Shown: positions 3,414-64,000 of the stretch, in pieces
Layout of the letters: each line of letters opens with the position of its first letter
How positions within the stretch are numbered: the first letter of the stretch is position 1
Assembly (NCBI GenBank): GCA_973895155.1
Contig: OZ316899.1
Span: 11,657,775-11,721,774 of the forward strand
Source of the DNA: Marsupella aquatica
Taxonomy: Eukaryota > Plantae > Marchantiophyta
DNA: 64,000 bases
Direction of reading: 5' to 3'
The notes under the pieces: model-generated
The model's input: the letters and a program-made list of their open reading frames with translations, nothing else
The model's database searches: none
What the model was told of the DNA's origin: nothing
Translations under genes and position numbers: made by a program

Positions 3414-3420
3414 TATAAAA
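3414..3420 (+). promoter_or_regulatory. Putative TATA box of the family-A LTR (TATAAAA; also present at ~13537 in the 3' LTR)
   Basis: GGTATAAAAGGGG lies ~355 bp into the LTR and ~105 bp upstream of the LTR ORF ATG at 3522. Confidence 0.6.
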
Positions 3421-3521
3421 GGGGAGCCAACCCTTTGTAGTGCACCAGTCCATCAGTCCACGCGCCAGCTTCGACCCCAGCTCTCTCGTTCGCTCTAAGT
3501 CGCCACTACTATCTCCTCTGA

Positions 3522-7203: not shown

Positions 7204-10200
7204 ATGCCCGTCACTCGTTCTCAAGCAGCTTACTTGAGGAGATTGACCAACGAACGAGAAAGTGCAACCACGACAAGTTCCGATTCTTCGGGCTCGGAGG
7301 ACTCGCAATCGCCCTGACGTATGAACATACCCCCGGGACCTTCGGGGTCCGGTTCGACCGGTCCTGCTGCGGTTCCTCCGCCACCACCACCACCACCGCC
7401 ACCTCCACCACCACCTATGGCAGCCGCTCCACCGATGGCCCGCGCTGCTCAAGCTCCTCCACAAATATTGCAACGATCGCGATTTCATTATCGACCTTTC
7501 AAGGGGCGTCATGGGGACGATCCGGATGAATGGTTGGATGAGTTTGAAGCCACTGCTAAAGCTAATGGGGAAGACGCCATTAAGCTAACCGTCCTCCCGG
7601 GAGTGATGCGGGGAGAAGCTCGTCCATGGTACAACTCGTTGCCACCCGGGACTACATGGGCACAATTCCAAGCTGCATTGCTGCAGGAGTTTCGTGCCAT
7701 TGGATCAGAATAGCGTTCTCTATTAAAGATTGGCCAGCTTCGCATGGGAAAGAAGGAGTCCCTACGGAAGTTCATTCAGAAGTTTCAGAAACTTGCGGCC
7801 AAGATCCGACCCAGGCCGGGAGATGCGCTCCATCTTACATGGTTCCTTCATGGTTTGCCCACGAATATGCAATTCTGGGTACGCCAGAATAATCCAATTT
7901 CAATGCAGGCGGCCATAGCGTGCGACGAAACTTACCGGGAGTCCACCTATAACTCCCGGCGGAGCCAGCGAGCACGCCGCAAGAAGGGTAAGTACGAGAC
8001 GTTCAGTGACAGTGACTCCGAATCGGACGACGAGAGGAAGAAGAAACGAAAGAAGAAGAAGAAACATCGTTCGACCTCGTCCAACTCGGAGACGGAATCC
8101 AGTTCGGATTCAGCTTCAAGCACCGGATCCTCTACCTCCAGTTCATCAGGAAGTGACTCGGAGAGCGGAAGCTGGAGCAAAAAGAAGAAGAGACGAGTGA
8201 AGAAGGAGGGGAAGATCAAACCCCGGGCGTGAAGAACGATACCAGATCCAAAGGCTGCCGAAGCAGACAAGCTGAACGAAATCACGGATCGACTCAAAGC
8301 ACTGTCAGTACATCTTGCGGAAAAGCCGGTGGAGAAGAAGCAGCCATCTGAGATTCGAGCCCATGCGTGGTGTTCAAAGTGCTTCCAATCCGGCCATGTG
8401 GTGCAGGAATGCCCAAGGTGGAAGAACCGAGTTCACCAAGTAGAGCTGGATGATGTTGACAACCCGGGTCCCGAATCGGAGTCCACGGAGTATTTCTTTG
8501 AGGACCCTCTTGATTCCGTGTACCAGATTTCAACGATAGGTCCGCGTAATTTAGCGGGTAGAACTGCGTACCCCTACCCAAACAATGGCCGGAGTTTCCA
8601 GGTTATCAGTAACCCGAGCATCCCTCCTAAGCCAGGGATTTGGCGATCCCCGGTTTGTTATAACTGTGAAAAGCCAGGACACTTTGCGAGGGAATGCACC
8701 GAACCAAGACGTCAGGGAGATGGCCGAGGCACCCCACTATGTCAAGTCTGCAAAACGGAGGCTCATTCCACGGCCAACTGTCCGTTGGTAATCGCTGCTC
8801 GAATGAGCGCAGCTAGACCGGCCCAGGCTGGACCGGCCACGAGCGATGCAGTCATCCAAATGATTGTTGTAGAATGGCAAGATGACAACACCAAGTGGGT
8901 GAATCTGGTGGACGTGGCGGAACACCCTAATCCATCTGACGAGGTTGAGTGCTATCGTGTGTCAACAAGAGCTGAACGGAAGGAAGAGAAGCAGGAGGAG
9001 AAATGCAGGAAAAAGCAAGATACTACTCCGGTGCAGCCAGCGATAGATATACCCCCGGAGAAGGACGATGACTACCGACGGGAAAACCCGAAGCTATTTT
9101 TCCCCCGCATCGAAGAATTGGTAAAGAAACAGCTGGAGGCTTACGAAGCTCGGGAATACCAGAAGGCAATCGATAAGGACATCAAAGCAGCCGAGACAGC
9201 CCGGCGACAGGAGCAAGAAAAGCAAGATAAACAAGAGGAAGCCAAGCAACAGCCGAAGGAAGAAACGAAGGAGGACTATGATATTAAGGAGGACGTGAAG
9301 AGTTGCCCGGTTACAGCGACGGTGGGGCAACTGCTGCAGAACAACCCACAGTACAGACGGCAACTAAGGGAGTTGCTCATGGGTCGCCGAAGGAGGAGAC
9401 TACCCCGAGTTGGGATCGCGGACTGCAACATGATATACGAGGACCTTGGAGCGCCGGACATCTCGATCGAAATTAATAATTGTACCATCAAGATGGTTCT
9501 TGTAGACGGAGGAGCGGGAGTCAACATCATGACTGAAGAAACGTCAGTCAAGTTAGGATACCTCACGTATCAACCCACAGCCCGAGCTATCAGATTAGCA
9601 AACGGGGCAAGGGTCCTCCCATTAGGCACGCTCACACGAGTGCTCACTCTGGTGGGAGGGGTGGAGTTCTATCTCAACTTCCTAGTTATGAGGCCGGTTC
9701 GTCCCTCCTCTTACCCGGTTCTTCTGGGCAGGCCGTGGCTGTACGGTGGCCGCGTAGTCACGGATTGGGGAAAGAAGGAGCTACGGTTCGGGGAACCCAC
9801 CGTACGGGTATCATGGGCAATGGACGATTATCAGGGAGAAACCCCACAAGGACCCGAGGAATATGATTCGGAGACCTCGGAGGAAGAGGAACTCAATATG
9901 ATTGAACTCATCTCGTCCCTGTCCGAGGAAGATGTCTTCGGAGTTGAAGCAACCCGCAAAACACATCTCCTAAATTACCCGAGGGCTGCCATTGAGTCCA
10001 CCCCAAGCACATCTACTGTCGGGGATGAGGAAAAGCACGAACAACTCGTCGAGACGGAGGACATGGCTCCAACTAAGCAGGGAGCCGAGGCTGCTTCTAC
10101 CATTGCAGAGCCTCGTAACCACGAACCAGTCCAACAACCGCCCGAGGCCGAAAACTCGAGACCGAGACATAAGAAACGAGTCTCATGGGATCCGTCCATT

Positions 10201-13200
10201 CCGCATTTGGAGGAAGTAACTCCAATCCCGAGACCAATCCCGGTTCCACCCATGTACGGAGGAGTTCGGTTAGCTGAGCTTGATGCAAGCCTGGACCCGA
10301 GCCTACGAAACCAGGTTGAAGTCATCAGGAAGGAGCACTACCGGAAGTACACTATTGGGATGGACAAATCTTTTAACCTGGGCCACGCTCTGACAGGGGA
10401 GGCTGAAAAATCCATCCAAGCTTTGCTCAAGGAATATGAAGATGTGTTTGCATGGAGTCATCATGATTTAACAGGCGTCTCCCCCGAGTTGGGAGAACAC
10501 ACGATCGATCTGAACCTAGGAGCCCATGCGGTACGGCAGCGACAACATCGCATGAACCCGAGGTACTCCATCTTAGTGAAGGAGGAAATTGATCGTCTCC
10601 TCGCCGCCAATATCATCTACCCGGTAATGGCCAACGACTGGGTCTCTCCCATTGTCATTGTACCAAAGAAGGGAGGTACGGATGGAAAACCTAAGATTCG
10701 TATTTGTCAGGACTACCGTAAGCTGAACAACGCAACCCGAAAAGACCATTACCCATTACCATTCAGGGATATGGTTCTAGATATGGTAGCCCGAAATGAA
10801 ATCTATACATTTCTTGACGGGTATTCAGGTTATAACCAAATCTGGATTCGCCTCGCGGATCAGCTCAAAACAACTTTCACTACGGAGTGGGGGACTTTCG
10901 CATTTCGGAGGATGCCTTTCGGTCTGTGTAACGCCCCGACCATGTTTCAGTGCCTTATGATGAATATCTTCCACGATTTCCTACGGGAATTTCTGGAGAT
11001 ATTTATCGATGACTTTGCCATCTTCGGAACCGTTGCCATGCACCCCGAACACCTAAGACGAACGTTGCAACGATGCCGAGATGTTAACCTCAAACTACAT
11101 CCCACCAAATGCTTCTTCGGGGTAGAGGAGGGGGTGTTACTCGGGCATCGTGTGTCCAAACGGGGCATTGAGGTGGACCAAGAGAAAGTTGCGGCCTGGA
11201 TGGCAGTGGTGTTCCCCGTGGATCAAAAAGTAGTACGATCCTTCTTGGGCTGCGTAGGGTATTACCGTCGGTTCATTAAAGATTTTGCTAAAATAGCTTT
11301 GCCCTTAACAGAGATGATGAAAACGGACGCGGTGATCGAGGAGACCCCAAGGAGACGGGTTGCTTTCGAAGAACTCCGTAAAAGACTCACCACCGCACCT
11401 ATCATGGTCACTCCAGACTGGAACAAGGAGTTCCACGTGTATGTCAACGTGTCAGGGTTCTGTATCGGGTCTGTGCTTAGTCAGCTTGATACGGACGGAC
11501 GCGATCACCCCATCTACTTCGCTAGCCGTCAATTATTCACAGCCAAAAAAAATTATTCCCCCACGGATCGAGAGGCACTGGGCATAATCTACTCATGTAA
11601 GAAGTTCCGGCACTATCTGCTCGGCTACAAGGTCATCTTCCACACGGATCACGACAGCCTGAAGTACATGGTCAACAAAGCAGACATAACGGGACGGATA
11701 GCCCGTTGGGTGCTACTTCTCCAGGAATTTAACTACGAAGTTTGGGTTCGGCCAGGAAAGGCACACCTCAATGCCGACTTCTTTTCACGGCTGGACGGCG
11801 TACCAGTCGATCAGCCAATTGATGATATTTTTCCGGATGAGGAGTTGTTCCACATAGGGGAGGGGACACCAACGTGGTACGGCTCAATAATCACCTTCCT
11901 TTTAACGGGCCGCATCCCTGACGGCATCAATCAGGAGGCCGCCGTTGTGTTTTTACGGAACGCCGGGCCTTACGTCATGATACAGGGTCACCTACATAAG
12001 GAAGGTATTAATGGAAAGTTACGACGCTGCTTAGAGTATAAGGAGATGCTTATCGTGATGCGGGCCCTGCATGAAGAAGAAGCTGGAGGCCATTTCGCGG
12101 TGGTCACGACAGCCCGAAAGATTCTGGACTCGGGGTATTGGTGGCCTACGTTGCATCGGGATGTACAGCGCTTCATTAAGGGCTGTGACTTGTGTCAGCG
12201 AGTTGGGGCCCCAAGGCGGGCTCATCATCACCCGCTCACATCTGTGCTTCCATTGGCACCATTCGAAAAATGGGGAATTGATTATATCGGGTCGTTTACT
12301 CCCGTTACCCGAAGGCGAAGATGCAGGTACATCCTACTAGCTATTGATTACTCCACCAAGTGGGTCGAAGCGCGGGCTACGGTAAAGGACGACGCCGCAA
12401 CCAGTGCCAGATTCTTATACGAACAGATTTTCACCCGATTCGGCCCGCCCTTAGAATTGGTAAGCGACCGTGGAACCCACTTCCTCAATGACACCGTAGT
12501 CCAGCTTACGGAGCATTACCTAGTCAAGCACCGCAAGACTACCCCGTATCATCCTAAAGCCAACGGGATGGCGGAGAGAGCAAATGGTATCATTGGGAAG
12601 ATCCTCAACAAAACAGTAGCTGCGCACAAAACGGATTGGGATGATAAGTTGTACGCAGCGGTGTACTCGTATAATCTAGCTTACAAAACTACTACGAGTC
12701 ACAGCCCGTACTTTCTTGTGTTCGGCCAACATTCGTTGGTGCCCGTCGAGTTTGAAGTACACACTCCACGGGTCAGCATTCGGGATCGCTTACCTGAATC
12801 TGAAAGTTCGTCAGACCGAGCTTATCAGATTGAAGCCTTGGAAGAAGCATGGCTACTAGCAGCTCGACATGCCGTGAAGAAACAGGCAACTTTGAAGAAG
12901 CAGCACGACAAAGGACTACGGAGGGTCGACGTCGTGGCAGGCGTCTAGTCCTTCTATACGATAGTAGGTACATGCAGTTTCCAGGGAAGCTTCATACCCG
13001 GTGGTTAGGGCCCTTCCTTGTCAATCAGATCTACCGTAACGGATCTTTGGAGCTTGCGACGTATGCCGGCGATTTACTCCCCACGCGAATCAGCTACGAT
13101 CGTGTAAAAAAGTACCACCATCAAGATGACGACGCCGAGAGTGATGTTCGTGAGGACGCTTCACAATTAAGCAGGGAGCTATGTGACGCCGCCGGTACGG

Positions 13201-44940: not shown

Positions 44941-47537
44941 AGATGATCTGAGTGTAGTTATTACAACTTTAATGGCCGGAGTTAGACAGTTAGAAGATGA
45001 ATGAGGGCTGGTACTCCTGAAGTGAAACACTTGGCCCTGGGTATCACACTGACGCCGATGCGACTGGTTAGTTATACATCGAATTGTTGGGTGTCAGTTT
45101 TCTTATGGAGCATGGTCGTTATGCTCTCTGTATAGCAGGTGTAGGTGTTCGACTGGAGGTGTTAACTGTAAAATTATGAGATACAAATTACAGTACTTGA
45201 ATGCTCAGTAATGAATTAAAGGAATCAATTTTAGTACACAATGTGTCTAGATTAGGGTCAGAAACATACTTGATGGCTATGTCTGTAAACGGGTAACACC
45301 AGAACGGGATGTATGCGCGTCCCTTCGTAGTGACTCAGTCCGTGTGCTAGTCAACAATAGATTTAACTAAATTAGATTGAAAACTAAGTAGGTGCTAAAC
45401 AAGTAGCCGTAAACTCGTAACGTCAGCAAATTCGACAGCAATGTAGGATTAATCTGCAATATGGATCCGATGAGACAGGAGCAGATACTCCTCTTCCACG
45501 AGTTCTGTCCTCCTTGAGAACGTTTCTGGACACAATGATTTGGTAGTCTTCTTTCTACTGTCTTCAGTTGGCCTTTGCGTTGTCAAGATCCAACGACGAT
45601 GGACTCTTCGGGCTCATGAATCTTTTGGCAATGATCCATGTGGAGAAGTGCACAAGCTTTACTTCCAAGTGGTCTCGGACACTACGATCTGTTTGCATTT
45701 ACGTCAGAAGGTGTTTAACCTACTTTAGTTAAGAGTTCTATACTAAGGATAGTTTGCTTAGTGGATAGGCTTTCCCCAAGAAATTCTCTACAGATCCGAC
45801 TGAAATAGCGACGGGAGCATTTTCCACACCAGTGTCTCATTATTTTTTCTAACTACCGACTCTGTTTAGAGTTATCTGGAAAAATATTTGGTGTCAGATC
45901 CAGTTATTTTCGCACATTGACCTAGCCAGTTTTATGTTCTCCACTGTAAGATCTCGAAGATCTTTTGTGTTTGGCTAGTCTGATTCTCTCAAAGTGTATT
46001 GTACCACCTTCCCTTCTGGAGCCCTTCCAATCAGTGCTAACGTTCAAAATAGTTGCATGTTCAATTGCACTGGGCCACGAATCTCTGTTACACTGGAGCT
46101 ACCACTTTCAGAATTCTAGGCGTTCTTAATATTAGGAAAGAAACAGATTTCAGCAGGCCTTGAACGGACTTATTGAGGCTAAAAGATATGACGCACACCA
46201 CCTCGAACCTGCCTTAGGTCGAAGAATCACCTCTCTACGTTCTAGATCTTTCTTGATTCTGTTATTTAGGTTCCTAGAGTAGAGATTGCCTGATACACTA
46301 ATCACCTCATGGCCCTATCAGTTGCTATAGAATGAAGGACGAACTTAATATACCTTTGCTTCGAAGCCAGTGACCGATTGGACTTCTGACATTGACTACA
46401 ATGGTGAACAAGCCCATGTCTCAGCTATCAAGTAAGTCACTGGAAGTAAAATTTAGTCATAGGCAGTACAGAAGTGTAGTCGGTGTTGGTCCAACGAGAA
46501 CTTGATCTGTTCTAACAGACGAGGATGCAACATTCTTCCATACCAACTTAGCTACCCGGCGCTGCTATTGGCATAACAACCGGTCCACCATAGGTTTGCA
46601 ACCTTAATAGTAAAGGAGCTTAGTTCCTGATGGAGGGCTCTCGTAGCAAATCTTCGAACAGGGTCAAATAAACTACCGATACTTTCCGTAGTATTGACAA
46701 ACAGGGCAAAATTATTTCAATGCCCGTTAAACCAGAAATAAAGGTGGCACTCCTGCAGTGCGTGGGTAGAAATGTTCTCTAGCAGCCAGTTACAATACCA
46801 CTTTCATGTCTAGCACATAGACCATCAAATTGAGCAGTCTTGGACAATAACCGCATTTTATACTGAATCTGGTTATGATCGTATGCCATAACCTCAGCCT
46901 ACCAAAGTCCCGTATTGGCAAGGACCATTTAGCGTTTCTATATAAATCATATTTTAGATGGCCTAATGAATTGACTTGAGAGGAAAATCTCAAAAGAGGT
47001 TGTTTTATGTGACAAATTGCTGTAACTTTGCAGCTGAGGTCTCAACATGTCGGTCGTCTACAGTCTTGAATCAAATATATATTTGGCCAGTCTACTATGC
47101 GAATATTGGGAGGCGAATATAGACTTTTCTCTGATTGCTGGTACCGCTGTTGAACCCAAGGATTTAAAATCTGCATCGGGTGAACACAAGGATTGCAACG
47201 GGATGCCCCCTTTGAAGCGATTGCGTCTGAAACATAAGAAATAATGTTGCAGTCTCACAGTTGGTTCGAAATGAACTTATATTTGGCGTTTTAGTTCGCT
47301 ATCGTTGTAACTACATACGGAATGCACAAGTCGACTATTGTTGCTCTTGTCCGCCTTATCGTTGATCGTCTTCCAGTGTTTACAACAGTTACCAAATCGG
47401 TTATGTAGGATGTGGGATTATCAGGAGAATTTCACATTATTGAGCTACTACAGACGGGTCTAACTTTCGTTTTGTCAAACTTCTGGTGGCTAGAATGTGG
47501 TCCTCATGGAGTCTTTTGTGGAAATTGCCAATTGCAG

Positions 47538-48760
47538 GAAGTCAGAGCCAGGTGAAACATGGGGATGAAGACTGCCATGAAGGAAATGACAAAAGATCTC
47601 TTAATCTGTTGAAAAGTCATAGCCCTTTCTCTGACACTGACTGTGTCAGTAGCATCCAGCCACTTGAGTTTCGGCAAAGTCTCCAATCTGCTGGAAATGC
47701 GGAAATGGGGTTGCCCACTTCAACTGTCATTAGTATGCATACAGGCCATGAGAAGCCGACCAAACCTGCAAAGTGGAGAGACATGAATGTAATTCAACTC
47801 CCAGAATTGGATTACAAAAACACCAGTGTCATCGATGACTCTTTCAGATCCACTGTGGAGCAGCATAATGATAGTGCAACGACAGTGCATAACAGCTGTT
47901 TCACAGTCGAAAGGAATAGTTCTGTTCTGAATATGCATGGAAGTCCTGTTACCACGAAGTCTGAGCCCATTGTAAAGGAAACGGGCCTCATCCTGGCAGC
48001 TGGAAGAATATGCAGACACGAAATTTCTGGAAGAGATGGAGAAGAAATGCTTGTCGACACTAAGCAGAAACAAGGGCAGGGCTTTGAGAATTTGCCTCTT
48101 TCCCATAATCTTTTCAGTGGTATCCAATCAAATCATACTTTCAAAAGCAGTCGTTATTCTGAATGTTCTAAAGACGGTAATGGACAGTCGCATCCTCATG
48201 ATGGAGACGATGACTGGGAAGCAGTGGCTGATGCAATCTATATGCAAGGTGCTACATCAAAAACTGACGATGCAACCGAGTTGGTAAGTGGCGAAAATGC
48301 TGATTTGCTTGACAGAAATAGGAAACTTTCGGCAACAAAGGAACAGAATGGTGCGTTGCAGCCAGAGTATAAATACAAGGCAGGTGGACTGGGGGGACGG
48401 ACAAGAGCTATGGGTGGCAGGGCGTGGAGACCTGATGATGCAGCAAGGCCACCTACTCTTCCGAGGCTTTCCAAACAGCACAGCTTCTCTCTCTTGTCAA
48501 CCCCACCAGCCTGGAGTGAATTGCATGACAGTAGTTTTTGGGGTCCACCTCCTGCTCCTTTGTTTTGTCCAATTTGCACCGAAGAACTGGATCTGACGGA
48601 CTCTTCCTTTGTTCCTTGTTCTTGCGGTTTTCGACTTTGCCTTTTCTGTCATCATAGAATTGCGGCAGACGACGGCCGTTGTCCTGGCTGCCGAAATACT
48701 TATAACTCTGATGTAGCCGTGAAATTGTCCCGTGCATCTAATCTTTGGCTCGATATCTGA
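47538..48760 (+). CDS. Host RING gene, coding exon 3; NOT4-type C4C4 RING E3-ligase-like protein (~499 aa spliced)
   Basis: TTGCAG acceptor in matching phase. Motifs DDWEAVADA, RAWRPDDAARPPTLP and CPICTEELDLTDSSFVPCSCGFRLCLFCHHRI...CPGCR. Confidence 0.92.
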
Positions 48761-49510: not shown

Positions 49511-50789
49511 GGGCATTTTTCAACAATGATTGGGGTGCTAGTTATTTGTTGTGTAATCATTGTTCAAAAAAACATGTGGGATACTATAAACAATGTTGTA
49601 ACATTGTGCTTCTCATACTGACCAGTCATCATTGCATATCTGAGTATTACATGTTGAATTATTGCCTTGTATTTTTCCTTGATTGCATCACTGACTATTC
49701 ATTGTATTTTCAGTGTTCTTTCATTGCTACAATAATATGAAATGATTTCATGGTGTTTCATGGTTGTCAGATCACTGTCATTTCATCATTAGTCAAATGT
49801 TACATCGGCCTAGAATCAGCAAGTTTGAATTGTTAAGTAAGCACGGTTTCATTGAAAAATCATTGTCCCCTCAATGCTTATTCATTGTGTTTGCAACAAT
49901 TGAATCACCATGTTTCCATTTTTAATTAAACATATTTACATATGTAAATCATTATCACTTCAATGCCCTCTCATGGGCTTTTCAATGATCAATCATTGTT
50001 GCTTGATTGTTGATATGTTTACAGCAATTGTCATATCAATGTCATTTCATCATGATTACATCATTGTTATTTCATTAGCATTTGATCATTTCCTTGTTAT
50101 TTCACTGCCTCTTTGACATCCATTCATTATCATATCATATCATTGATTCATTGCTATTTCATCACCATTTCATAGTTTCCTGGTTATTTAGTTGCAGCCT
50201 CTTCAACAATTCTTTCATTGTCGTTTCAGCTATGGATCATTGTACTTGCATCATTCAAAAGTGCTGCTCTGGTCACAGGTTGAGATTTAGGGTTTAGGAT
50301 TTGAGTGAGGGTCATTGATAGTTTGAAGTTGACATCATTTTGGGGGTCAAGGACCCATGTCTAAATTCTATAGACTTAAACAAAAGCTGGTTCCAACAAG
50401 CAAGGTGAAATCAAAATAGGGATTGTATGGTTTCCTTGTAGACCACACAACCTGCATTTCAATCAATAATGGTACATAACACGGTTAAATAATTACCATA
50501 TATGCACTTATGGGACAGAACTTAAGAAACCTCCCTTTTCTGGCTTACAGATTAATAAATGTAGTTTATAATAGAAAATAGTTCAAAGCAAAGCTCCTCG
50601 GGCAAAACTTTTACTGGTCCTCTCTCAAAGTCTTCCTATTTTTGAGCTGGGCTTCTTCCTTGTAATTGAGGAAGTTAAGAACTAATCCAACAATGATTAC
50701 ACATGCAGTCTTTGTAAATACTGCACTTTGCATGGCTCCTGCACTCGCTAGCTGACTAATAACCACTAAAGTCTAGACTACACCTAGTG

Positions 50790-51978
50790 CTTTACATGGC
50801 ACGTTCTCAAGCTACTACTCGAAGAGATTCGTGAATGGTGTTCGGAACAGGCACACACACTATACTTGATCACTGGACATCAGTATAACCTCCTATGGAT
50901 GATCGACTCCATGTTTGAGTTTGTACTTAATCTCCCTACAAAAATACACAGCCTGTTTGTGGCAGACATCACTCGATGTTATGAAATGATACCGCTTACC
51001 GGGGATGCTAACCTCCCGAACGCCCTCCAATACATTGTGCGCAAAGCATTCCTCCACCATCGGTCAAAGTCCAGAACACAAAATATCTGGGTACACTTCA
51101 ATACATCTTCTGGTCTCGCGGATAAAGCTCGCTGGCATCAGCACTGCCCTGGTACGGCCTGCTGGATTGAGATGACACAAGATCGATTCCTCGCTCTACA
51201 AAACTGGCTCATTCAACACTGCATGGTTTGCCTTGGCGACAGGGTATGGAGACAAAAGTTGGGCATCCCAATGGGATTTTTGTATTCACCACTATGGTGT
51301 AACCTATACTTCATGGCCTATGAAATTCAATTCATGCTACGCCTTGCCAAACTTCAGCGCTATGACCTGATGCAACACTTTCAAAATACATATTGATATA
51401 TAGATGACTTCTGTTCACTCAATAACACTGAGATCCACAAATTTCTCCTGACAAAGGCACACCGGACCAGAGATAACCCAATCTGGATATATCCATTGGG
51501 CATTGTGGAAATCAAAGTGGGGCATGACACCACTCTACCTGGGCTCGCCCATTGGGGAACTAAGGGGCATTTCTTGAATGTACAAATGGAGATCATGGAC
51601 ACTGTACTTGGAACGTTCACTACAACCAAATATGACAAACGACGTAGCCTACCATTTACATTCCGACAATATATTCAGTTCAAGTCTAACCGTCCAGTAC
51701 AAGAGGCCTACAACATCACCATTTCCTAGATGATGTCGATCCTCTATATGGCCAGTTCCCATATATTAGCCATCATGGAACTGGACATCCTAGCTACGAC
51801 ATTGGGAACAAATGGGTTTGCAATACCTAGAATCTACCGGTTAATACTTCGCTACTGCCACAATGAAACCTTGCCTGGGATTAGATTCGATCTGCAAGCC
51901 CTCATCAAACTCCTGGAGACCAGAGCATTTTACAATCATCCAAGCAGGACCAGAATGCATGGCACATCTAGCAACTAG
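50790..51978 (+). pseudogene. 5'-truncated Penelope-like element RT (Naiad/Chlamys-type signature)
   Basis: One frame with two stops: LWMIDS, ADITRCYEMIP, RQKLGIPMG..SP..CNLY..YE, *YIDD, IYP, FLNV, YDKRR..PF, SNRP...Y...S*. Confidence 0.8.
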
Positions 51979-52054
51979 ACCCACATGTCTGTATGACCAC
52001 TCCACACTGGACTGATGGAAATAAAGCGCATTGCCCCCATAACGAGACTGTGCA

Positions 52055-52134
52055 CATTGTGGCTTGATCATAATTGGATCTGTTTGTGAGATATCATTGT
52101 GGCTTGATCATAATTGGATCTGTTTGTGAGATAT
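52055..52134. repeat. Perfect 40-bp tandem duplication
   Basis: CATTGTGGCTTGATCATAATTGGATCTGTTTGTGAGATAT x2. Confidence 0.95.
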
Positions 52135-52304
52135 CCTTATCCTTAGGAGACATCCGTCACCAACACTACGATTTATCTTTATTTTGAACTTCTATCTTTA
52201 GCCGACATCTCACGATGGATGGTGGACATGATCAGTCTCATGTGGGTCAAACAGCACCCTACCTTAAGAGAGCACATATGGAGAATTTTGATAACAAATC
52301 AGGA

Positions 52305-52386
52305 GAGTATGGTATGCACTCCCTTCTGGGGTGAGTGCATACCATACCCGGATGGGAGTGCCTCTACCATGGGTATATGGTGGAGG

Positions 52387-52432
<46 letters not shown>

Positions 52433-52849
52433 ACAAAAGAAAATCGAATTACCCACTTTAAATCAGTATTATAGAAATACCTCAAAACCAATGTACGGAC
52501 ATGTTTATACATATAAAATATAAGTATTTTTTACTTACACTTACATTTATGCACATAAATAAATATACTAATTTTCTGACACATGCACCACCATTCGATC
52601 TTAACGCTAAGAGATGTTAGTACATCTACCACTCAAATAAAATACCCTAGATCTGACGGTCACCATAGGGATTCGGACCCCACAAAGAAAACCTAAAATA
52701 TCTCAGGACCTACGCAACCTTCTTTAAAAGCGCATTGTTCACTCTCTACAGTTATTCTCTTGGCACAGCACTCTGGTATCTTGCACTGACGCACTTTCTG
52801 ACTGCACATCATTTCCAATGTTCTGTTCACACACTGCACTATGTGGGCC
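52305..52849. repeat. Direct repeat copy 1: two hairpins, (CT)n, then a ~420-bp AT-rich block
   Basis: Matches 54824-55393; near-identical downstream of the (CT)n tract. Confidence 0.92.
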
Positions 52850-53917
52850 AGGACATTCTCCTGCCATGTACTCTGTGCCCTATGCTCTGCCCCAATAGAT
52901 GCTTGTGATATAGTTTTTCTAAGTACATCATACTCAAGGTGACCAAGTCAATCAACGAGACCTCTTACACAACTCCAGTACACGAAAAATGGCCCGGGCG
53001 CAACAGGTATGACCTTGTTTTTTTCTATGCTGTATGATTGCTTTTATATTTCTTGTGCTAGCCTTGAACTGATTACGCGTCTCCCCGTTACCGCCTGGGC
53101 TTTGGTAGCAGAAACGTGTAGCTTGAATCTGTCCTAAGTTTGACTGGATTCTCCCCATGGATGGGGGCTGAAAGACAACCATGGGGCCTGCAATGTAGCC
53201 CGTGTCACCTACATTTTCAGTTCAGGATTATGGTCTATATCAATCTGTATGACAGACAGATATGATGAACTGCTACCTTCTGGATTGATCTGATCAAGAC
53301 AAGTCTTTATTGTAAAGGAAAGATATTTTTTCTTCAATGTTTGTCTCAATACTAACCTATGCTAATCTCTTTTTGGTGCTGTCATCCACAATGCAGAGTT
53401 ACCTCTATGCTAATACTTGTGACGTACCTTTTTCTCCTGATTTTTTTAACTTTGATTAAATATTTCTCAATGACGCATGAATACACACATCTCATACTGC
53501 TTTGTTATGTTACAACACATATCATGATGTCACTACTTTATCTTTTCATATTACTTACTTGGAATATAACTCCTTTTCGTATGACCCATTTTTTACTGCG
53601 TATCAAACTTCTATTTGTCCTCCCATGACATACCATGTGCATTCGGTAACTTGTGAATTTCTGACATGAATGATCTGGTGGATATCATATCCAATAAAGA
53701 TACTCCCTCTACCAATCTGTGTGACTAAACCATATGCTCTGTGTGGATATGGTCTCGTCTTGACGGTGGCCTTGACTGGGTGTGTATAAGCTACTCTTTA
53801 TGATCTCTCTCTTACTTTCCTCCACTCCTTCAATTGGTTTTGAAGGACCATTGTCAAGATCGATACTAATGCCACACACCCATGGATGTCTGATTACAGA
53901 AACGCTGGTCACGGGAA

Positions 53918-54820
53918 ATGCTATCTTTAGGATACAATAATGACCTCCCACGGCCATGTAACATGGCTATCCAAGCCACCCTGGCCTCCATTCGCCAGCC
54001 AGAAATTCACACTGCCATCCAGACACATGATCGGGATGTGATGAATCGTGGAGACGATGATGCACCAGGTCAGTTACTCCTACACCTCCTGGGGATTAAT
54101 GAATGGTTTACCATATATCAATCTGCCGGATGTATCAGCACGGAGAATGCTCTGACCAAACTTGATAGTCTTATTAGTTCGCTGGATACTTTCGAACACA
54201 TCGACAAAGACGAATTGGAGCAATCGCGCGTTACCAGCAGCAAGCTAGCACGGATGTTAGCCTACGCACCAACGGTTTCTACTACCAATGAATGTCCCCC
54301 TTCAGCACTTATTACCGACATTGCTTCGAGACTTTGGGAGAATCCGTTGTTAAACACTTCATGGTTGTCCACTGAGGAACGTATTGCCTTCGATGAGGCC
54401 ATTGATGGAGCGCAATCATCACAGAAGGACCTCGATGATTCCAAACAAGATGGAGAACCTTTCATTCCCAATAATCCGCCACGCTTTCTAGAATGGGAAG
54501 CTTCGAAAGTTGACTGCTGCATGTGGCGTATTCCTAACATCAACAATCTTGCTCCTATTTCTCTCGGGATGTGGAAATTGTGGGCGTCCCTCTCTACCAA
54601 AGATATTAAGGCATGCAAAGCAAATGCCGTCTGAGGCTTCTCATGGATCGAAACCTCACCACCAATCTCGACTCGCTGGCCCATGACGATCTTTGGTGCT
54701 CCTAAATACAAATGCTCTATGGCGGCTGGGGCTAAGATCCGTGGAAACTTTGTTACCGATACTTCTAGGTCTCCCCAGGAACACAAAACCAGACTGATGA
54801 GATATGGCTGGAGACGAGGC
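53918..54820 (+). pseudogene. Uncharacterised ORF (~300 aa, one in-frame TGA at 54632) between the direct repeats
   Basis: 53918-54634 and 54683 onward share a frame. No recognisable domain. Confidence 0.45.
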
Positions 54821-54823
54821 TGT

Positions 54824-54908
54824 GAGTATGGTATGCACTCCCTATCTGGGGTGAGTGCATACCACACTCACAACAGATGGGGACCGCTACCATGGGTATA
54901 TGGTGGTG

Positions 54909-54975
<67 letters not shown>

Positions 54976-55393
54976 GACAAAAGAAAATCGAATTACCCAC
55001 TTTAAATCAGTATTATAGAAATACCTCAAAACCAATGTACGGACATGTTTATACATATAAAATATAAGTATTTTTTACTTACACTTACATTTATGCACAT
55101 AAATAAATATACTAATTTTCTGACACATGCACCACCACTCGATCTTAACGCTAAGAGATGTTAGTACATCTACCACTCAAATAAAATACCCTAGATCTGA
55201 CGGTCACCATAGGGTTTCGGACCCCACAAAGAAAACCTAAAATATCTCAGGACCTATGCAACCTTCTTTAAAAGCGCACTGTTCACTCTCTACAATTATT
55301 CTCTTGGCACAGCACTCTGGTATCTTGCACTGACGCACTTTCTGACTGCACATCATTTCCAATGTTCTGTTCACACACTGCACTACGTAGGCC
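54824..55393. repeat. Direct repeat copy 2 (hairpins, longer (CT)n, 420-bp block)
   Basis: Copy of 52305-52849. Confidence 0.92.
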
Positions 55394-56034
55394 CTTGGGG
55401 GGGGGTCACTGTATGTAGGGCTCTACATCGTGTGCTATGTTTTAGGGTCTGGACCCCCTAACTTTTAAGTGAATTTTTTTTCCCCACTCCCTTACTTTCT
55501 GAAAAGCGGCCATTTTTTGAATTGTTTACCCCTATAAAACTTTATGGAAAGTTTTATGATGATTTAAAAAATGCCTATTAAGGAAAGTAAAGTACCTCAA
55601 TAGTGTAGAGCCAATTGTGCAAATTGATGCACATTTCCAATACATTCAATGAATTTGCATCATGAAGTTGAATATCTTGTAATGCATTCATTGTCATCCA
55701 ACAACTTGTAGTTTTCGCTCTTGAATAGTGAAGCATGGTGGGTGCCAGATACTATGAATAGGTAACCAAACATCTTAGGTTGCCTATTCAAGGCATCGGT
55801 ACTCTACCTTGTTTCACTATAAACTCCAGCATGATGATGTCCACATCTCTACCTTCCTTCACAGACTCATGCATGATGATGTCCACATGATGGAGGGGAA
55901 TTGAACCCCTGATTGAGCATAAATCTCAATTTGCCAATCCGCCATCCCTTACTCTACTCCCTCCCACTAACCCTACACATGCATCACATACACACACAAC
56001 AAACTACTTTTAATAAACAATAGTCAATTATATA

Positions 56035-59000
56035 TCACAATTTACTCACACTTTGAATGTATGCAGTCAAAGCTTGCAAGTCACTTGCATCTAGTACATA
56101 CACTCTGTCAACTATCCCAGACTTCATTGTCAAGTTCACATTTGAAATTACCATCTCAATATCAATCCATTGTCCATCTGTTGCATCATAAGTGAACAAA
56201 GTTTTGTTGTTACCAGTAGATTTGTACCAATTACACTGCAAGCGGTACACACTTCCACTCTGTCCAACTGCAGGTATAGGCCTGTCCAACAGATCTATTG
56301 CTTTCCGACGTCTGACCCAATGGGAGCCATTCTTCTGTATCATAAACTCAATCCTACCCAACCAATATTCCTTCTTTGCAGATGTTGCGTCAACAACAGG
56401 CCCTTTATCTATTCCCTTCCTCTTCTTTGACTTGGATGATCTGGTAGAAGGACCAACCTCTACAGCAGACTCAAACAAAACTGCTATATCAGTACCAATG
56501 TCAACCAAACAAGTCACAGAGTCACCATTTTCCTTCTCCTTACCAGTAGTGTAATAGGTCTTCGAGGCTATCCTAGTTAGCCTATCCTTTGACATGAAAG
56601 GATTGCAACACAATTGACCCACAAGAGTGGACTTGTAGATAGTCCTTCCCTCATAAGTTATAGTAGACACTACTGACCGGGGTGTCTGCACATCAGTTAA
56701 GTCTGCTTGAACTCCAGCCAAGACATGCCTTACTTCATGTCCTAGTGTCTCCATCTCACAAAATGGGTTAGTGTCCACCTCAATCGAACAATCATCAACT
56801 GTTAGTGGCTCAATACAATCCTGACTATCCAGAGTGTCCCATGAATCAATCTGATTGAGATCTTCTTCAGGATCTTCAAACTCTAGAAACTCTCCAATTG
56901 GGGGCTCAGGTCTAGGGCCTACAGTAGATCGATGCTCAACTCTGTCTTCAGCATCATCACATAACACAGCCTCTTTCATGATACTTGTATCCGGCCAAGT
57001 CTCTGCCTCCACCTCCCAAGGATGAACCCACCATCATCTTTTTGCTGCTGGCAAAGAACTCCTTGGTGACATGTTCAGCTTGCACAACAAATCCTTTGCT
57101 TCCTGCAAACCTTCCTTTAGAGCATCAACAACCAGCTCATTAGTCTGAACTGCAGAGTAATCAAATAAATTTGGAGCTTATTCTCCTTCATCCAGAGGAT
57201 GTAAAGTTGCCCAAACATGATCCTGTTTATCATGTGATCGACGTATCTTCAATCCCTCTGGTCCATACTCTAATCCAGCTAGTCGATTCAGTCCCACTGC
57301 ACTATCCAGTAGAGATCCAAAGTCATAATTTCTCTCATGGCCACTCATGCCACCTACCTTGCTGAAAAATATTTCACAACAATCTGATCCCAACAAGTGA
57401 AATGGAACTTGCAGATATGGGAACTTGTCCCAAAAGGCACAGATTAACAATACTACAAAATGACAAGACATGTTGATATCATGGAAAGTTTGCACAAAAA
57501 TCATGTTTTTCTCTATGATAGATCCAGCATTCCCTGTCACAAAATGATCACCATACCTCAACCATAGCCTCCATAATCGGAAGAACCAAGATACCTTTGA
57601 TGCCAAGACAACACGGGTTCTTAGGTCATGCTTAACAGAGAAGAAAATATCCATGTAGTCTGCACAAACCTCCAAGTATATCATGGTCCCAAAACTTCTA
57701 TCATGACAAACATCTCGTCGCTCATACATATGCTGCAGGCAGGCCTGCACTCTCCTGGAAGCTATTCGTTGTGGGCCAGCCCAGTTTTGTCTATCTGTCC
57801 TATTCACATCATCCCAATGCAAACCATGCTCATGAATTGCATAATGGTTATAAACAGATGTGACATATGACAAAGATGCATGCTGATCACCAAGAACTAA
57901 CATAGCAGACACTCGGTCCAATGGGTTAATTGCCTTCTTGCCATTGTGAGGTGGGTCTTGGTCTCCAAAACCATATAGATCTCCATTTGGAAGTATGGAC
58001 ACTGAGTATTGCCACCCAACCCATCCTACACTGTACCTAGGAAAGGAACCATTCACAGCAGTATAATCTTCCATCATCAATTTCCTACGACGAGCATCAC
58101 CATCACTAGCATGGCCCAACAAAGGACCAACACTGTCTCTGCAATGTGTGTTCCACATGGACTTCAGCTGCACCCAATGCTCTCTTACCCAGGGAGCTCT
58201 AAACTTGTTACATGTTGGTAGAACACACAATGCCAATTTAGGCATCTTTGCATGCAGAGGATTGACAATGATTACTCTAGCATACATGCCTTTGGCATAT
58301 TGCTCAAAAGTACTTACAATCTTGTCATACCCTTCAGTACCTGCTCCAACTAGTACTTCCAAGCCAAAAGAACATGTGTGCTCCTCTAAGGGGCCACAGA
58401 AACCAATGAGGGTGTCATATTTAGCTTCCCATCTGTCACACACAATACAAAACACACATCAGCTCATGACGTGCAAACTCATCCAACACATTCAAAAGAA
58501 CAAGCTAATTTACTACAGAGACAAAAACACAAACCTGGGTCTCTCTTTTATCCTTGTTTCATCCTCAGCAAACATTACTGGTACATCTCCTAAAATTCCA
58601 AGTGACTGCTTTGATGCACATAGTACTCTGCACACCTCCTGGAATATCTCTTTTCGAATGCCAGCTCTAAAGGGTGGTAGTTTTGCTCTATCACGTTTCA
58701 AGGTCTTCAGACCTGGACCACCTAGGTTTGCCTGGAAACAATGAGCCACTTGTCTACCTCCAAACTGGAACATGGCTTGGGAAAAGGCCTTGGTTCTCTT
58801 ACTGTATCGATAACCCTTAGCAACTCTCTGCAAGTTCTTAGCTACATCTGCAGGAAATCCCACAACCCTTCCTTGCCACCAAAAGCACCACGCCTATGTC
58901 CATTCACAATATTTCTCAGAAACAGTCTTAAATCTTTCCTATCATGGGCTACTCCTAATAAATCTTCTAGCTTCTTTTGCCTAACACTCAAGGCACAAAT

Positions 59001-60629
59001 TTTCTGAGCCTGTTGTGCCAACAGCCAACGCTGTTTCCTAAAGCGAGTGTTGAGGTTACCAACATGTTCCCTCAGTTCGGTTTTGGTCAAGTATGCCAAC
59101 CTCATCCCACCCTGTGTAGTCCTGTCTCCTCTCTGCACTAATGCTTCCGCTTCCCTGTGCACCCTGCCACGAAAATCATCTTCACGTTTTATTGAAATCA
59201 CATAGAGTGCAAGTGAGGTTTTGAAAACCACCTCCATTAATGGACACCCTGTGACATTGCTTGTGCCTAAAACAACCCTGTATACCAACAACTGACTGGC
59301 TAGTTACATTGAAAACCTCAGCACAGGTGGTACGGTCACAGTCCCAGACATTCCCTCCCTCTTGATCATCAAGTATGCCCTTCACAGCCATAGAATCCCC
59401 TATCCACTTGACCTCTGACTCCCACAGGCCCCAACAAAGCAAACTTAAACTTGGCTCAACGGAGGAATACAACCCACCTCTGCCTGAACTGCTCCCTGCA
59501 GCAGAGCTGTCCTCTCAAAAGAAATTCAGAATAGAATTTTGAGATGGAAACAGATCACGAGCATCAGGCTTCCTTGGTCTCCCCTTCTTCCCTGCCCTCA
59601 GTGCAGCCTGGGTACTGGTGACAACATTCTCAAGTGCATCCATATGATCCCGACTGACAAGGTGTTGCCTTAAATTGTGTTCCAAATTGGATTTCTTAGG
59701 GCACATGTCAGTATGTAGCTTGCCACAAACTGTACATCTAACCTTAAATAGGAATGACCTCTGTGCAAATGTTGGATCAGTGGAGATGGTGTCATAGATA
59801 ACACTTCTACCACGCCACCTACCTCTGCATTCAACTTTCCAACTATTTCCACACCAGCCCCTATTTGCATACTATGATCAAGCAGTGGTTGCTGTATAGT
59901 GTCAGCAGCCGTCACCAAAGCTCCAGCTAAACCCCTTCGCTTACACCAGTTCTCCTTGTGTTTAGGGTTGGTCAGGTGCTTTGTCTTGAAGTTGCTAAAG
60001 CAATTTGCGATGGACTTGAGCACCTGTGAAGTGGCTGCATTCCCATAAGTCTCCCTACACTCTAAGCATTCTAGATGACCTCAACACTCCCCTCCCTCAT
60101 CCCATGTTCGCACTTTCCACTTGTGCTCACCAAAGCCCTTCTGGTTCACCCAGGATTGTAGCTTCAACCACTCATCATTCCAGGCCTTTGATGCAGCCTC
60201 AGACATGAGGTGAGACTCAAAGGAGCCTGTGACAGGCTGTACAGTAGCCTGTACTGGCACCCCTTGTGTTTGTCCTTGAGACAATGGAGTCGTGCCTACC
60301 ACATTGGACACAGTGGCAGCAGATGAATGAGAGGAACCAATAGTGACCCTCTCAACAGGCAAGGCAACTGAGGGTAACTCTGCAATCACGTAAACTGTCC
60401 CTTGAAGTTCAGTCACCCCAATAGTCTTCTCTGAAAAGCGTCGGACTTGACCAGGCAACCTCTCATCCCAAAAATCAAAGTCAAACTCTACTGCACCAAC
60501 ACATTTCAGACAAAAATCTGCCAGAGTCTGCCCTTCTTTGAAAGACATGACACAGATTGGCGTATCAGGCTTTCCTCCCTCCTCACCCTTTTCTACCAAT
60601 CTGACAGAGCTCATGCCTAGGTGTGCCAT
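56035..60629 (-). pseudogene. Large P-element-superfamily-like DDE transposase (about 1400-1500 aa, frameshifted; intron 58433-58534)
   Basis: Ordered motifs FAEDET, HASDGDARRR, QDPPHNGKKAINP, DRQNW.GPQR, LGSDCCEIFFS.VGG. N-terminal Cys/His fingers. A GT-AG intron joins ..RPR|WEAKYD in frame. Confidence 0.7.
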
Positions 60630-60779
60630 GATGGACAGTTATACAGGCTGTGAAAGTAAGGGATAGGGATTAGGTACATGAACCTGTCATACAACAATGG
60701 ACAGACATGGAAAAAGATCAGGACTCAAGTCAACCATTCACAATGTCATTTGAACACTCAATCTATTGTAGTCAATGAA

Positions 60780-60955
60780 ACTTACTTAAGTCCATTTCAG
60801 TTCATCAAACTTCCACTTCATTCAACCAAATACTTAAGTCCATTTCATTCATTGAAATACTTAAGTCCATAGCATTCAACCAAATACTTAAGTCGATCCA
60901 TAGCATTCAACCAAATACTTAAGCTGATCCATAGCATTCAACCAAATACTTAAGT
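60780..60955. repeat. Short tandem repeat (CATTCAACCAAATACTTAAGT, ~26-31 bp unit, ~6 copies)
   Basis: Directly visible, just upstream of the transposase ATG. Confidence 0.85.
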
Positions 60956-61035
60956 ATAATTTAGGTTGTCTTATGGGTCCACTACAAAAAAGGTTCAAGT
61001 TATAAGATGGTGGAATTAGTAGCAGTCATGCTGGT

Positions 61036-61761
61036 CTAGTCATGGGTACTTGGGATATCATAACCCTCTGGGATGACATGGCGAGTATAGTAAACCATGT
61101 GCCACTGTCCAATGTCCCAGGTGTCTCGGCCCCTCACCCTTCTCCTCAAGTGCCTGTCTGTTGTTGGTCCTTCATCACGACACCATGCATGATGGCATCT
61201 ATGACATTGGACAAAATCCCAAATGCCCTCCCGATACTCCTTACAGACCTCACAGTAATGTCGTGGGCATATAAGAGCATCGGGATGTGCATAAGGATTA
61301 TCTAGATGGCGGGTGAAAGGCATTTCCCCCAATCGCAGAAGTGTCCGAAGACAACTCACATGGTAAAATGAGTAGCAGTCATCATGAGAACACTGGATCA
61401 CAAGGGGCTCGTCTGTGGTGGGTCTCAAGGTTCTGCCAAGGAGTCCACAACCAAAACATCTTCCTCTGTTTTGCTGATAGAGGTCACAAAGCCAAGCTGC
61501 AGCCCAATCATGACCTCTGGAAATGACAATCCGCTGACATGTAGGTCCATGGCCATCTTCCTCATCGGGGTTGTGGCCATCAACTACATAATGAAAATGG
61601 CGACCACAAGGACCATCACAGAACAAAACAGTTCCTCCCTCATCACATTCAAAACAGCAAGGGGGATCCATACGAAGGTGCTCCCTATGCCCAAATCTTG
61701 GATCCAGCAACTGACGAGCAATGTGTGCCATGCTGAACAAGATCTGCAAAATTACCTTCAA
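61036..61761 (-). CDS. Tandem PHD-finger protein or exon (EDM2/NSD-like composite PHD)
   Basis: CFECDEGG.VLFCDGPCGRHFH...C...WLC...CFGCG.LG...IQC...C.SFYH.SC...ICPRHYCEVC...FVQCHRC. Confidence 0.78.
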   Translation of the reverse strand: MKVILQILFSMAHIARQLLDPRFGHREHLRMDPPCCFECDEGGTVLFCDGPCGRHFHYVVDGHNPDEEDGHGPTCQRIVISRGHDWAAAWLCDLYQQNRGRCFGCGLLGRTLRPTTDEPLVIQCSHDDCYSFYHVSCLRTLLRLGEMPFTRHLDNPYAHPDALICPRHYCEVCKEYREGIWDFVQCHRCHHAWCRDEGPTTDRHLRRRVRGRDTWDIGQWHMVYYTRHVIPEGYDIPSTHD

Positions 61762-61900
61762 AAATTAGGGGCAGGCATGTGATGTACCAGAAGGAGCGAT
61801 AGTCCACCAGCAATCATAGCCAGTAGGCACCACCAGGGGCATGACTTCCCTGTGGGCTCCTTTGATCCATCCTGCAATGTGAGCAATGCAAAATCAGAAG

Positions 61901-62430
61901 TCAACAACTTGAGTGTGCATCACCATCATGGACAGAACCTGGACGTGTCCCACCACAGACACAATCATTGATGAAATGACAGGTGTTCCACGCCAGGCAA
62001 CCACCCCATGACATTCTTGCCATGTACTGTGCAAAAGTCTGCACTATGTTAGAGTCACCTCCCCTACAACAATCACATGTCTGGGTGTGACAATGGAGAC
62101 AAGCCTCCAAGAAGACACGGTCCTCATCCAGCACCCCATCTGTCTGTTTAACCGAGACGGATACTGTTTGGGGCTGGTGGGGATGTACTTAGCCTCCGGT
62201 AATGGTTGCGAGGCACAGATGGATAGCCCCAAGTCACAGCACAGTCTGTAGGCACGATCCCAGAATGGATCATCTTCACACGAAAGCGCTCACCCTTCTG
62301 TCGATGGTACTCAGACAATACACTGCGTGTGACAACCATCTTCAGTGCAGTACACAGAGATTGTGCCCACTCCAACAAAATGACAAGGCCACAACAAACA
62401 AGGTATCGGGATTGACCTTAGCAAGGGCCT
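61901..62430 (-). pseudogene. Cys-rich coding fragment, probably part of the same cargo gene cluster
   Basis: CLHCHTQTCDCC and CHFINDCVC. Frames are broken. Confidence 0.35.
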
Positions 62431-62653
62431 GAACACAACCTCCCCAATTCCCGACTTCTACCAATTGATCCCTCCAAGAAAGAAAGGGAGTTGAAGTTAT
62501 ATTTCATGCATACAAGTATCAAACAAACATACAGAGTAGATAGTGTCCAAAAATAGATAGACTCCTATATGCAAACATTTGCATCAGACAAGCAGGTCTT
62601 TATTATGTAAACTGCACCAAACACAGGGATACACTTGGAAAACGTAACCAGTC

Positions 62654-63121
62654 CTATATACACCTGCGTTTTGGTATGATCAAGTTTACACTTTGCCAAA
62701 GGGCATTTGCCTCATCCTGTTTAATCATTTCTAGTTTCCTCTTGGTATTGTGAGCCTCAGATTCTACCTCAGTCAACATTAAGTTGAAAGGGCCTTCTTG
62801 CAGACGTACCCCTACCTTTAAGGATTCACACATCCATTCAAATGAGACAACTTTCATTGCCTGATTTTGAACAAAGTGATTCACATCAGACCAGGACCAT
62901 GTGGACAGGACTGCTTTCCATGAATTGGCAACAATGTGAGTGGTCTTGGTGGATAGAATATCACATTGTCCACCATGACGTTCTATCAGCTTTCTGTGAA
63001 AGACTTGAAAATGAGCTTTGGAAAATCCATTTTGAACTAAGATGGCATTCACGCCTCGGAAAATGGGGTTTGATACTGAACTAGGTGTGGCTTTTTGCGA
63101 AATGGCTTGTCTACGACTCAT
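62654..63121 (-). CDS. BRCT-domain protein or exon (resembles the N-terminal BRCT of plant DNA polymerase lambda)
   Basis: IFRGVNAILVQNG...KLIERHGG...KTTHIVA...VVSFEWMCESLKVG: canonical BRCT GG, THIV and WxxxS motifs. Confidence 0.8.
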   Translation of the reverse strand: MSRRQAISQKATPSSVSNPIFRGVNAILVQNGFSKAHFQVFHRKLIERHGGQCDILSTKTTHIVANSWKAVLSTWSWSDVNHFVQNQAMKVVSFEWMCESLKVGVRLQEGPFNLMLTEVESEAHNTKRKLEMIKQDEANALWQSVNLIIPKRRCI

Positions 63122-64000
63122 GGTACACTAAACCATAAACTATAAGAAACCGTCTGCTGCTCTGCAACAAAATGAAGCTTACTTGAATCCTCCAAACAGA
63201 TGCCTAGAATTTCTGCTCTGTGATAATTCAATACAAAACCCCTGCACAAGTCCCACACACAACAAAAAGCTCAATAAAACATCAATAGTCTCAACATACA
63301 CCAAAAGCTTAGTACAGTGAAAGTGAATGAGGACCGCAAACTCTCTCACTGTGACACTCTTTACAGTCTCACCAGAAATGCTTTGAAAAACAAAAATGTC
63401 AGGTTAAATAAACTGCGCAGGTAAAAAAACCAGGTTCTCTATCACATTGACAAACAAGCTTTCTTTCATAGTCCGAGGGTTTGTCTGTCTACTATCAGTT
63501 TTCTGCTAACATGTTCCAACTCTGATAGTAGACCCCCCCTGAGAGACTGTCAGTTTTTTGCTAACTATGTGCATTCTGCTAAGCCAAGCTGCAAGTAAAC
63601 ATAGTTAGCAGAATTTCATTCACTTTGGAACCCACAAAAAGAGTTGCTATATGAATAGCAATGTTCTTACCTTCACAGCACAGTCAGTGCAGGATTGGAT
63701 TGGATCTGATTTGGATGGCGAGCACCGATCACAACGAAGATCAAGCACCGATCACCAACCAAGCAGCACTCACCAAGAAAGCACCGATGTCTCTTGCTGA
63801 GTTCACCCTAAATGGACAATCTTGCCAATGCGAGTGGGGATCAGATGCGCAACTTTTTAGAAGCTTCTATAACTGAACAAGCTGGATTTCAGGGTGGCTC
63901 TTTTCAAGGCAATGCAAGCACATAGGCTTGTGACTGTGACAACATAGACTCTGTTTGTATGGAAACTTCCAATTACAAACTCACAGGAGTGATAGATTCT

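Follow-up and report, generated by a model that had tools for sequence, protein, structure and literature searches.

Gene content and boundaries of the locus

The sequence analysed here (the window) is a 64,000-nucleotide stretch of contig OZ316899.1 of the liverwort Marsupella aquatica, forward-strand positions 11,657,775 to 11,721,774. Near its right end, an open reading frame (ORF) with PHD-type Cys/His motifs lies beside the remains of a transposase gene. The following features were assigned to this region.

54824..55393, plus strand: host repeat hit by the insertion; its second copy, at 52305-52849, adjoins a Penelope-like reverse-transcriptase remnant
55386..55393, plus strand: one of the two copies of a predicted 8-bp target site, the partner falling outside the window
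55394..55410, plus strand: left terminus, CTTGGGGGGGGGTCACT, the 3' end relative to the transposase
56035..60629, minus strand: broken DDE transposase, predicted to be P-like, with stops and frameshifts; aligns to the L002 protein in four pieces
58566 (EDET), 58107 (SDGD), 57963 (DQDPPH) and 57387 (SDCCE), minus strand: transposase motifs
58433-58534, minus strand: predicted GT-AG intron of the transposase
60819..60954, plus strand: spacer repeat separating the PHD gene from the transposase, a 31-bp unit repeated 4.7 times in tandem; other copies have length variants
61036..61731, minus strand: stand-alone EDM2/NSD-type triple-PHD ORF, in which Y96 (its codon includes 61478) and Y226 replace zinc ligands
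61800..62450 (approximate), minus strand: ORF X, Cys/His-rich, likely coding, frameshifted in the window
62654..63127, minus strand: BRCT-domain ORF, probably further cargo (BRCT E 0.0035, under the Pfam cut-off; REV1 BRCT E 3.4e-5)

The initial annotation had described the PHD ORF as co-oriented with a transposase and about 400 bp from it. This agrees with our measurement, which gives 398 bp on the same strand from the PHD stop to the first open frame of the transposase. That annotation did not name the transposase, nor did it recognise the left end or the two additional cargo-like coding regions; the transposase gene is indeed present, and its P-like character comes from the fold of a relative (P0006, see below).

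At the left boundary, the two copies of the host repeat are 92% identical over 572 columns and the match stops exactly at 55393, while the first copy continues beyond the corresponding point. The letters that follow match the core of the terminal inverted repeat (TIR) of a relative, L002, at 12 of 12 positions, and the end of another relative, L003, is similar. One contig of run X4 ceases to match at 55408 and continues with 203 other letters. Because L002 has an 8-bp target duplication and the host repeat ends at 55393, the target site was predicted to lie at 55386..55393. Neither a right end nor a resumption of the host repeat was found in 60600-64000. A candidate right end at 63527-63543 was rejected: its score equalled the shuffled median (19 vs 19), no target duplication accompanies it, and contigs continue across it.

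The host repeat itself is a direct repeat of 570 bp and includes a CT microsatellite and a hairpin with 20-bp arms (54821-54872). The reverse-transcriptase remnant, which shares the stretch 50788-55393 with this repeat, is presumably Penelope-like, judged by eye from the motifs YIDD and GIPMG; Pfam gave no match on 50788-51393. A 438-codon ORF at 47444-48760 (plus strand) has a C-terminal C4C4 RING which we take to be NOT4-like; this ORF, probably belonging to the host, lies some 6.6 kb from the left end of the element. Positions 1-36600 of the window hold, by eye, remnants of LTR-type and LINE-type retroelements, including a 1571-codon pol-like ORF (8233-12948) and a duplication spaced at 10.1 kb. 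The single insertion observed sits in a repeat-rich region.

The transposase and its relatives

The window transposase can be aligned with the intact L002 protein over residues 46-1493 of the latter. We read its motifs as a D-D-E triad with DxxH, presumably as in P transposase. Pfam gave no match on it, and nothing useful came from searching PDB sequences with the window proteins by themselves. Among 3040 candidates, 88 relatives were found, including named proteins of Riccia and Adiantum, and in a FastTree analysis of 89 core rows the window grouped with P0004 and ten Riccia rows (support 99). Pattern searches returned no relatives in viral contigs (0 of 32 and 0 of 24 matches) or in genome contigs (0 of 18 and 0 of 20).

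The class assignment was obtained from P0006, a relative with 47% identity to the window core, whose model has a pLDDT of 88. In Foldseek, the only entries at E <= 0.001 among 500 matches were those of Drosophila P transposase (E 6e-11). The predicted fold resembles PDB entries 6p5a and 6pe2; against 6p5a it gave a VIA Z of 23.7 (rmsd 3.6 over 415 residues), the next family reaching Z 10.1. The P0006 model has an RNase H DDE core and, within it, a helical insertion domain of the P type. From the fold of this relative, the window transposase is predicted to be P-like. Transposases of the P superfamily use GTP as a cofactor.

There are also differences from the P element. Identity is only 12-14%, and L002-type transposases have about 1490 residues as against 751. 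Pfam detected neither a transposase domain in the intact relatives nor the P-element domain in them or in the window; there was one weak TNP-like_RNaseH_N match, to P0028 (E 0.002). No THAP domain appeared in Pfam scans of seven long relatives, which have other Cys/His motifs. The ends of the window/L002 family begin with CTC or CTT and a run of G, the named hosts are Riccia and Adiantum, and the window subfamily probably has separate accessory ORFs. According to the available text of PMC7776569, the N-terminal THAP of canonical animal P elements is absent from plants.

Two further conserved parts of the transposase were observed. The segment 56038-56550 (minus strand) is conserved with the C-termini of L001, L002, L003, L006, L010, L011 and L014 and looks BAH-like by eye; PDB and Pfam profile searches gave no confirmation of this identity. 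Were it a BAH domain, the transposase would have a chromatin reader of its own. At 60372-60620 (minus strand) there is a conserved N-terminal domain of 85 residues, ubiquitin-like by eye, likewise without confirmation by profile searches.

Locus L002 contains, at 192-6287, a complete and apparently intact 6.1-kb P-like element encoding a single 1493-residue transposase, in which Pfam found no transposase domain. Its 49-bp TIRs (84%) start with CTCGGGGGGGTCACT and are flanked by a perfect 8-bp target duplication. In this it resembles the P superfamily, for which the available parts of two sources give duplications of 8 bp in P elements and 7 bp in Galileo and 1360 (PMC3698922, PMC7776569). L002 was the only one of 39 loci of at least 4 kb in which both ends were seen; TIRs with a 7-8 bp duplication are thus present in L002, whereas the window shows the left end only. 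L002 is a candidate for an activity test. Other family members (L017, L020-L039, L057-L080) are more distant, at about 25-45%, and fall in separate clades; split matches in some of them suggest introns.

The L002 element is complete without a PHD gene, so this gene is not needed for transposition and is dispensable for the family. The 5' end of L002 lies about 680 bp ahead of the start codon, a distance which in the window falls inside the PHD ORF. No PHD gene was found at any of 80 transposase loci (best E 1.5). These were the best 80 of 90 from a metagenome scan with the transposase; they are distantly related (25-51%), and upstream sequence of more than 1 kb is available for just 16 of them.

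The stand-alone PHD gene

The minus frame 61036-61764 is open across 242 codons, with Met codons at 61731 and 61671. All the Cys/His motif pieces cited in the initial annotation occur in this frame, namely CFECDEGGTVLFCDGPCGRHFH, CFGCGLLG, QCSHDDCYSFYHVSC, CPRHYCEVC and FVQCHRC. The EDM2/NSD-type homology proposed there was borne out by several comparisons. Pfam PHD_NSD matched the ORF with 35.6 bits (cut-off 23.9, E 1.2e-8), and PHD-1st_NSD gave E 0.0037, under its cut-off. A set of 92 candidates contained three close relatives: P0001 (66%), P0002 (about 54-55%) and a fragment, P0003 (71%). A further 17 longer relatives with E <= 0.001 (of 3744 candidates) all have PF22908 and belong to the EDM2 family, with 26-32% identity; those named by their source include ENHANCED DOWNY MILDEW 2-like proteins. 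The best atlas clusters for the ORF were plant PHD_NSD proteins (0.91).

The whole triple-PHD module of EDM2 can be aligned, starting at the first CxxC and reaching the last YCxxH, and the stand-alone proteins end where EDM2 continues. The frames of P0001 and P0002 are open, and their stops lie within one residue of the window PHD stop. With NSD2/NSD3 the likeness is to PHD1-3: the family profile matched NSD2 at E 8e-20 (and AIRE PHD1 at E 1.4e-5), and the best structural match of the P0001 model (pLDDT 65) was NSD2 PHDvC5HCH, with a middling Z of 7.1 (rmsd 2.7 over 78 residues). Foldseek with this PHD model gave nothing at E <= 0.001, the top entries being BRPF1/JADE1 PZP, and a PDB sequence search with the window PHD protein alone gave nothing at E <= 1. 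Of the three proteins suggested for comparison, EDM2 and NSD were matched; ASHR3 was absent from the matches, and Pfam found no SET domain in or upstream of the ORF.

The ORF thus carries an EDM2/NSD-type triple-PHD module but differs from its full-length counterparts. It has neither the SET nor the PWWP domain of NSD2/NSD3. Compared with EDM2 it is 25-30% identical, multi-copy, and consists of the module alone in 211-247 residues, with no RFTS-like or methyltransferase-like domain; Pfam found neither of these in the frames scanned over 61699-64000. From these sequence comparisons, the ORF is EDM2-derived and not itself an EDM2. Finger 1 retains CxxCDxGGxxxxCD, presumably typical of fingers that read an unmodified H3 N-terminus, such as AIRE PHD1. 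Finger 3 is remodelled in all three full-length stand-alone proteins, where an H is replaced by C and the next Cys is lost, a change absent from the initial annotation. In addition, the acidic leader before finger 1 is reduced to 2-3 D/E residues of 15 in the stand-alone proteins; the three short Marchantia paralogs of EDM2 likewise have 2-3, whereas the remaining 14 host rows have 5-9.

The window copy appears to be decaying, as had been suspected from a single mutated ligand in CDLY. That loss is real, but the count was too low. Host proteins conserve 26 Cys/His columns, of which 20 remain in the window and 22 in each of P0001 and P0002. Y96 (CDLY, for CELC in P0001-P0003) and Y226 (YYTRH, for YCNRH in P0001 and YCPHH in P0002) are losses private to the window. 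At 61478, all covering contigs of runs X1, X3 and X5 have Cys (Y96C); run X6 has no coverage there. The amino acid differences listed between other copies and the window, such as H222R at 61100, restore the P0001 residue in 11 of 13 cases, so the other copies are nearer to the intact relative than the window is. Of the 17 differences listed within the ORF, 13 are non-synonymous and just 4 synonymous, which fits private decay of the window copy and is in itself no sign of purifying selection.

With respect to origin, an unrooted tree of 20 rows placed the stand-alone proteins as a clade joined to the short Marchantia EDM2 paralogs (100/100). These paralogs (P0092-P0094) end soon after the PHD module, and no methyltransferase-like domain was seen in scans of them; they share with the stand-alone proteins a DPP ahead of finger 1, a missing acidic leader, and a finger 3 whose loop is shortened. 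The branch leading to the stand-alone clade is 4.36 changes per column long, so this placement may be long-branch attraction. An AU test rejected the grouping with full-length Riccia EDM2 (p 0.024), for a group named after the tree was seen and with long branches. As ancestor of the PHD gene, we lean towards a short EDM2 paralog of the kind seen in Marchantia. Among the plant proteins searched, a set outside the host genome, the best match to the window ORF has 30% identity, and the stand-alone proteins in general are 25-32% identical to any host protein found. Since their common stop and ligands persist at 34-46% divergence from one another, a recent capture is not indicated.

Association with the transposon and possible role

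The region was covered by contigs of all six runs, in which both genes occur as many diverged copies. In X1 to X4, compared with 55250-64000, 30 of 30 bins were covered in each run by 526-3147 contigs at 80-100% likeness; in X5 and X6, compared with 60900-64000, 24 and 18 of 30 bins were covered, including the PHD ORF. As a weak hint, depth being unsuited to ranking genes, single-contig depth was of the same order for the two genes: 263-267 for the transposase and 199 for PHD in X1, and 1130-1409 for the transposase and 969 for PHD sites in X3. Beyond 62460 the depth falls in X3, X5 and X6, which indicates a right part that varies from one subfamily or organism to another. The joints listed for X4 include 55791-63475, 56817-61458 (inside the PHD ORF) and 59649-62072. 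These are as expected of internal deletions, but come from one of four runs, at likeness 80, and one has a short side of 25 letters, a type that is often false. The linkage of ORF and transposase at other loci, which the initial annotation had made the test of its proposal, is therefore seen indirectly, through the X4 joints and the coverage, and was not seen at the 80 distant loci.

These observations suggest that the PHD gene is probably cargo of the window's transposon subfamily, located inside its two ends. The alternative is a separate repeat or host multigene family which lies beside the transposase only here or in one subfamily. No contig in X1 to X6 spans both genes, the right end was not seen, and the end-like motif at about 63527-63543 would suit such a repeat, weak as it is and at chance level. 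Yet there is no second terminus between the transposase and the PHD gene, the spacer is covered at undiminished depth in the runs examined, one X5 contig passes from the spacer (60955) into the PHD ORF (61155), and the three X4 joints tie the parts together. We regard a separate repeat as improbable. P0001-P0003 may not be transposon genes. The BRCT ORF is probably further cargo, as judged from its sequence. For ORF X, one minus frame makes 7 of the 11 differences listed for 61827-62119 synonymous (p 0.008 against 0.25, the frame having been picked post hoc); Pfam gave no match, the atlas was blank, and no family was found. ORF X and the BRCT ORF may be genes of their own or exons joined to the PHD ORF by splicing.

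In the reading that we favour, an EDM2-type triple-PHD module would ride as its own gene in a multi-copy, P-like cut-and-paste transposon. Histone H3 tails are the predicted ligand of the PHD protein, which would act as an adaptor bringing the transposase to chosen chromatin. To this chain as a whole, an accessory reader that binds H3 and helps the transposase engage chosen chromatin, we assign a probability of about 0.45. Its parts differ in strength. Retention of the gene by selection is likely, whereas H3 binding is the somewhat better bet than its absence. Between tethering or target choice and anti-silencing the balance is about even; tethering is slightly preferred because a bare reader with no effector, lacking the other domains of EDM2, suits an adaptor better than a read-through factor.

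Retention is favoured because open frames, a common stop and intact ligands persist at 34-46% divergence, which is hard to explain for dead cargo. The contrary reading, that a host fragment was captured in the Pack-type manner and copied along without use to the element, must contend with this and with the mere 25-32% identity of the stand-alone ORFs to host proteins. It gains from the completeness of L002 without the gene, from the neighbouring cargo-like pieces (BRCT and ORF X), from the excess of non-synonymous differences in the PHD ORF and from the variation of the right part between organisms. On balance we consider a useless passenger as improbable as a separate repeat.

Somewhat less improbable, though still unlikely, is an anti-silencing or read-through role, anti-silencing being one of two uses proposed in the initial annotation, in which the bare module would bind heterochromatic H3 on the element and either recruit EDM2 partners for full-length transposase mRNA or serve as a decoy against host readers. 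The background assumed for EDM2 in the initial annotation, reading of H3K9me2 and support of full-length transcription, is in print: in the available text of PMC7529245, EDM2 at transposable elements binds H3K9me2 chromatin, recruits ASI1/IBM2 and EDM3/AIPP1, and suppresses proximal polyadenylation. Modification-dependent histone binding by the EDM2 PHD repeat is mentioned in the part available of PMC3632883, which cites unpublished data. Escape from silencing is credited to VANDAL accessory proteins in the sections available of PMC12973397. The element is also CpG-depleted (observed/expected 0.19-0.36 in its coding parts), as for methylated DNA. Against such a role, neither the N-terminal nor the methyltransferase-like domain of full EDM2 (PF12047, PF26055) is present in the ORF, its acidic leader is missing, and no effector domain is attached to it; with these parts missing, the read-through function of EDM2 cannot be assumed for it. 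The available text of PMC10241880 and PMC10852260 has nothing on an isolated EDM2 module.

PHD fingers are common accessories of transposons (PMC8557442, text available in part), with chromatin action proposed for them (PMC6446971). Rehavkus, CR1, Chlamys and plant MULEs resemble the present case in carrying a PHD finger on a mobile element for which a chromatin role has been proposed, but theirs is of the Pfam PHD or PHD_4 type and mostly within the transposase or reverse-transcriptase protein. Among 1846 MULE clusters, PHD occurs in five transposases and one accessory protein, with no PF22908 (PMC12973397, Table S6, as far as the available text extends), and the available portions of PMC9587614 and PMC8616336 contain nothing closer to the window element. 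The window differs from these PHD-bearing transposons in having a separate gene, an EDM2-type three-finger module and a P-like element. PHD on transposons is therefore already known, and a separate EDM2-type triple-PHD gene on a P-like element would be a new variation.

Our literature search found no P-like elements of liverworts, mosses or ferns and no EDM2-type transposon gene; Repbase and Dfam lay outside this search, so absence is weakly shown, and the transposase family may already be catalogued there. From the parts available, P elements in fungi are sparsely reported (PMC5751038), and in a Pfam screen of 1007 plant genomes that included P, the active elements recorded all belonged to seven superfamilies other than P (PMC12973397). 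As the transposase family has no Pfam match and L002 is intact and bounded by TIRs, P-like elements of land plants may have been overlooked, and their activity is testable. More tentatively, there may be a P lineage of non-seed land plants, missed by Pfam surveys, in which one branch built a cassette of BRCT, Cys/His and triple-PHD genes from the host's heterochromatin-reading machinery, the reader steering insertion or sustaining transcription in silenced chromatin.

EDM2 is the means by which Arabidopsis transcribes through transposon heterochromatin. If the PHD gene is a passenger, it is ordinary cargo; if it is true accessory cargo, a transposon with an EDM2 reader module as its own gene would represent a testable borrowing of a host chromatin reader.
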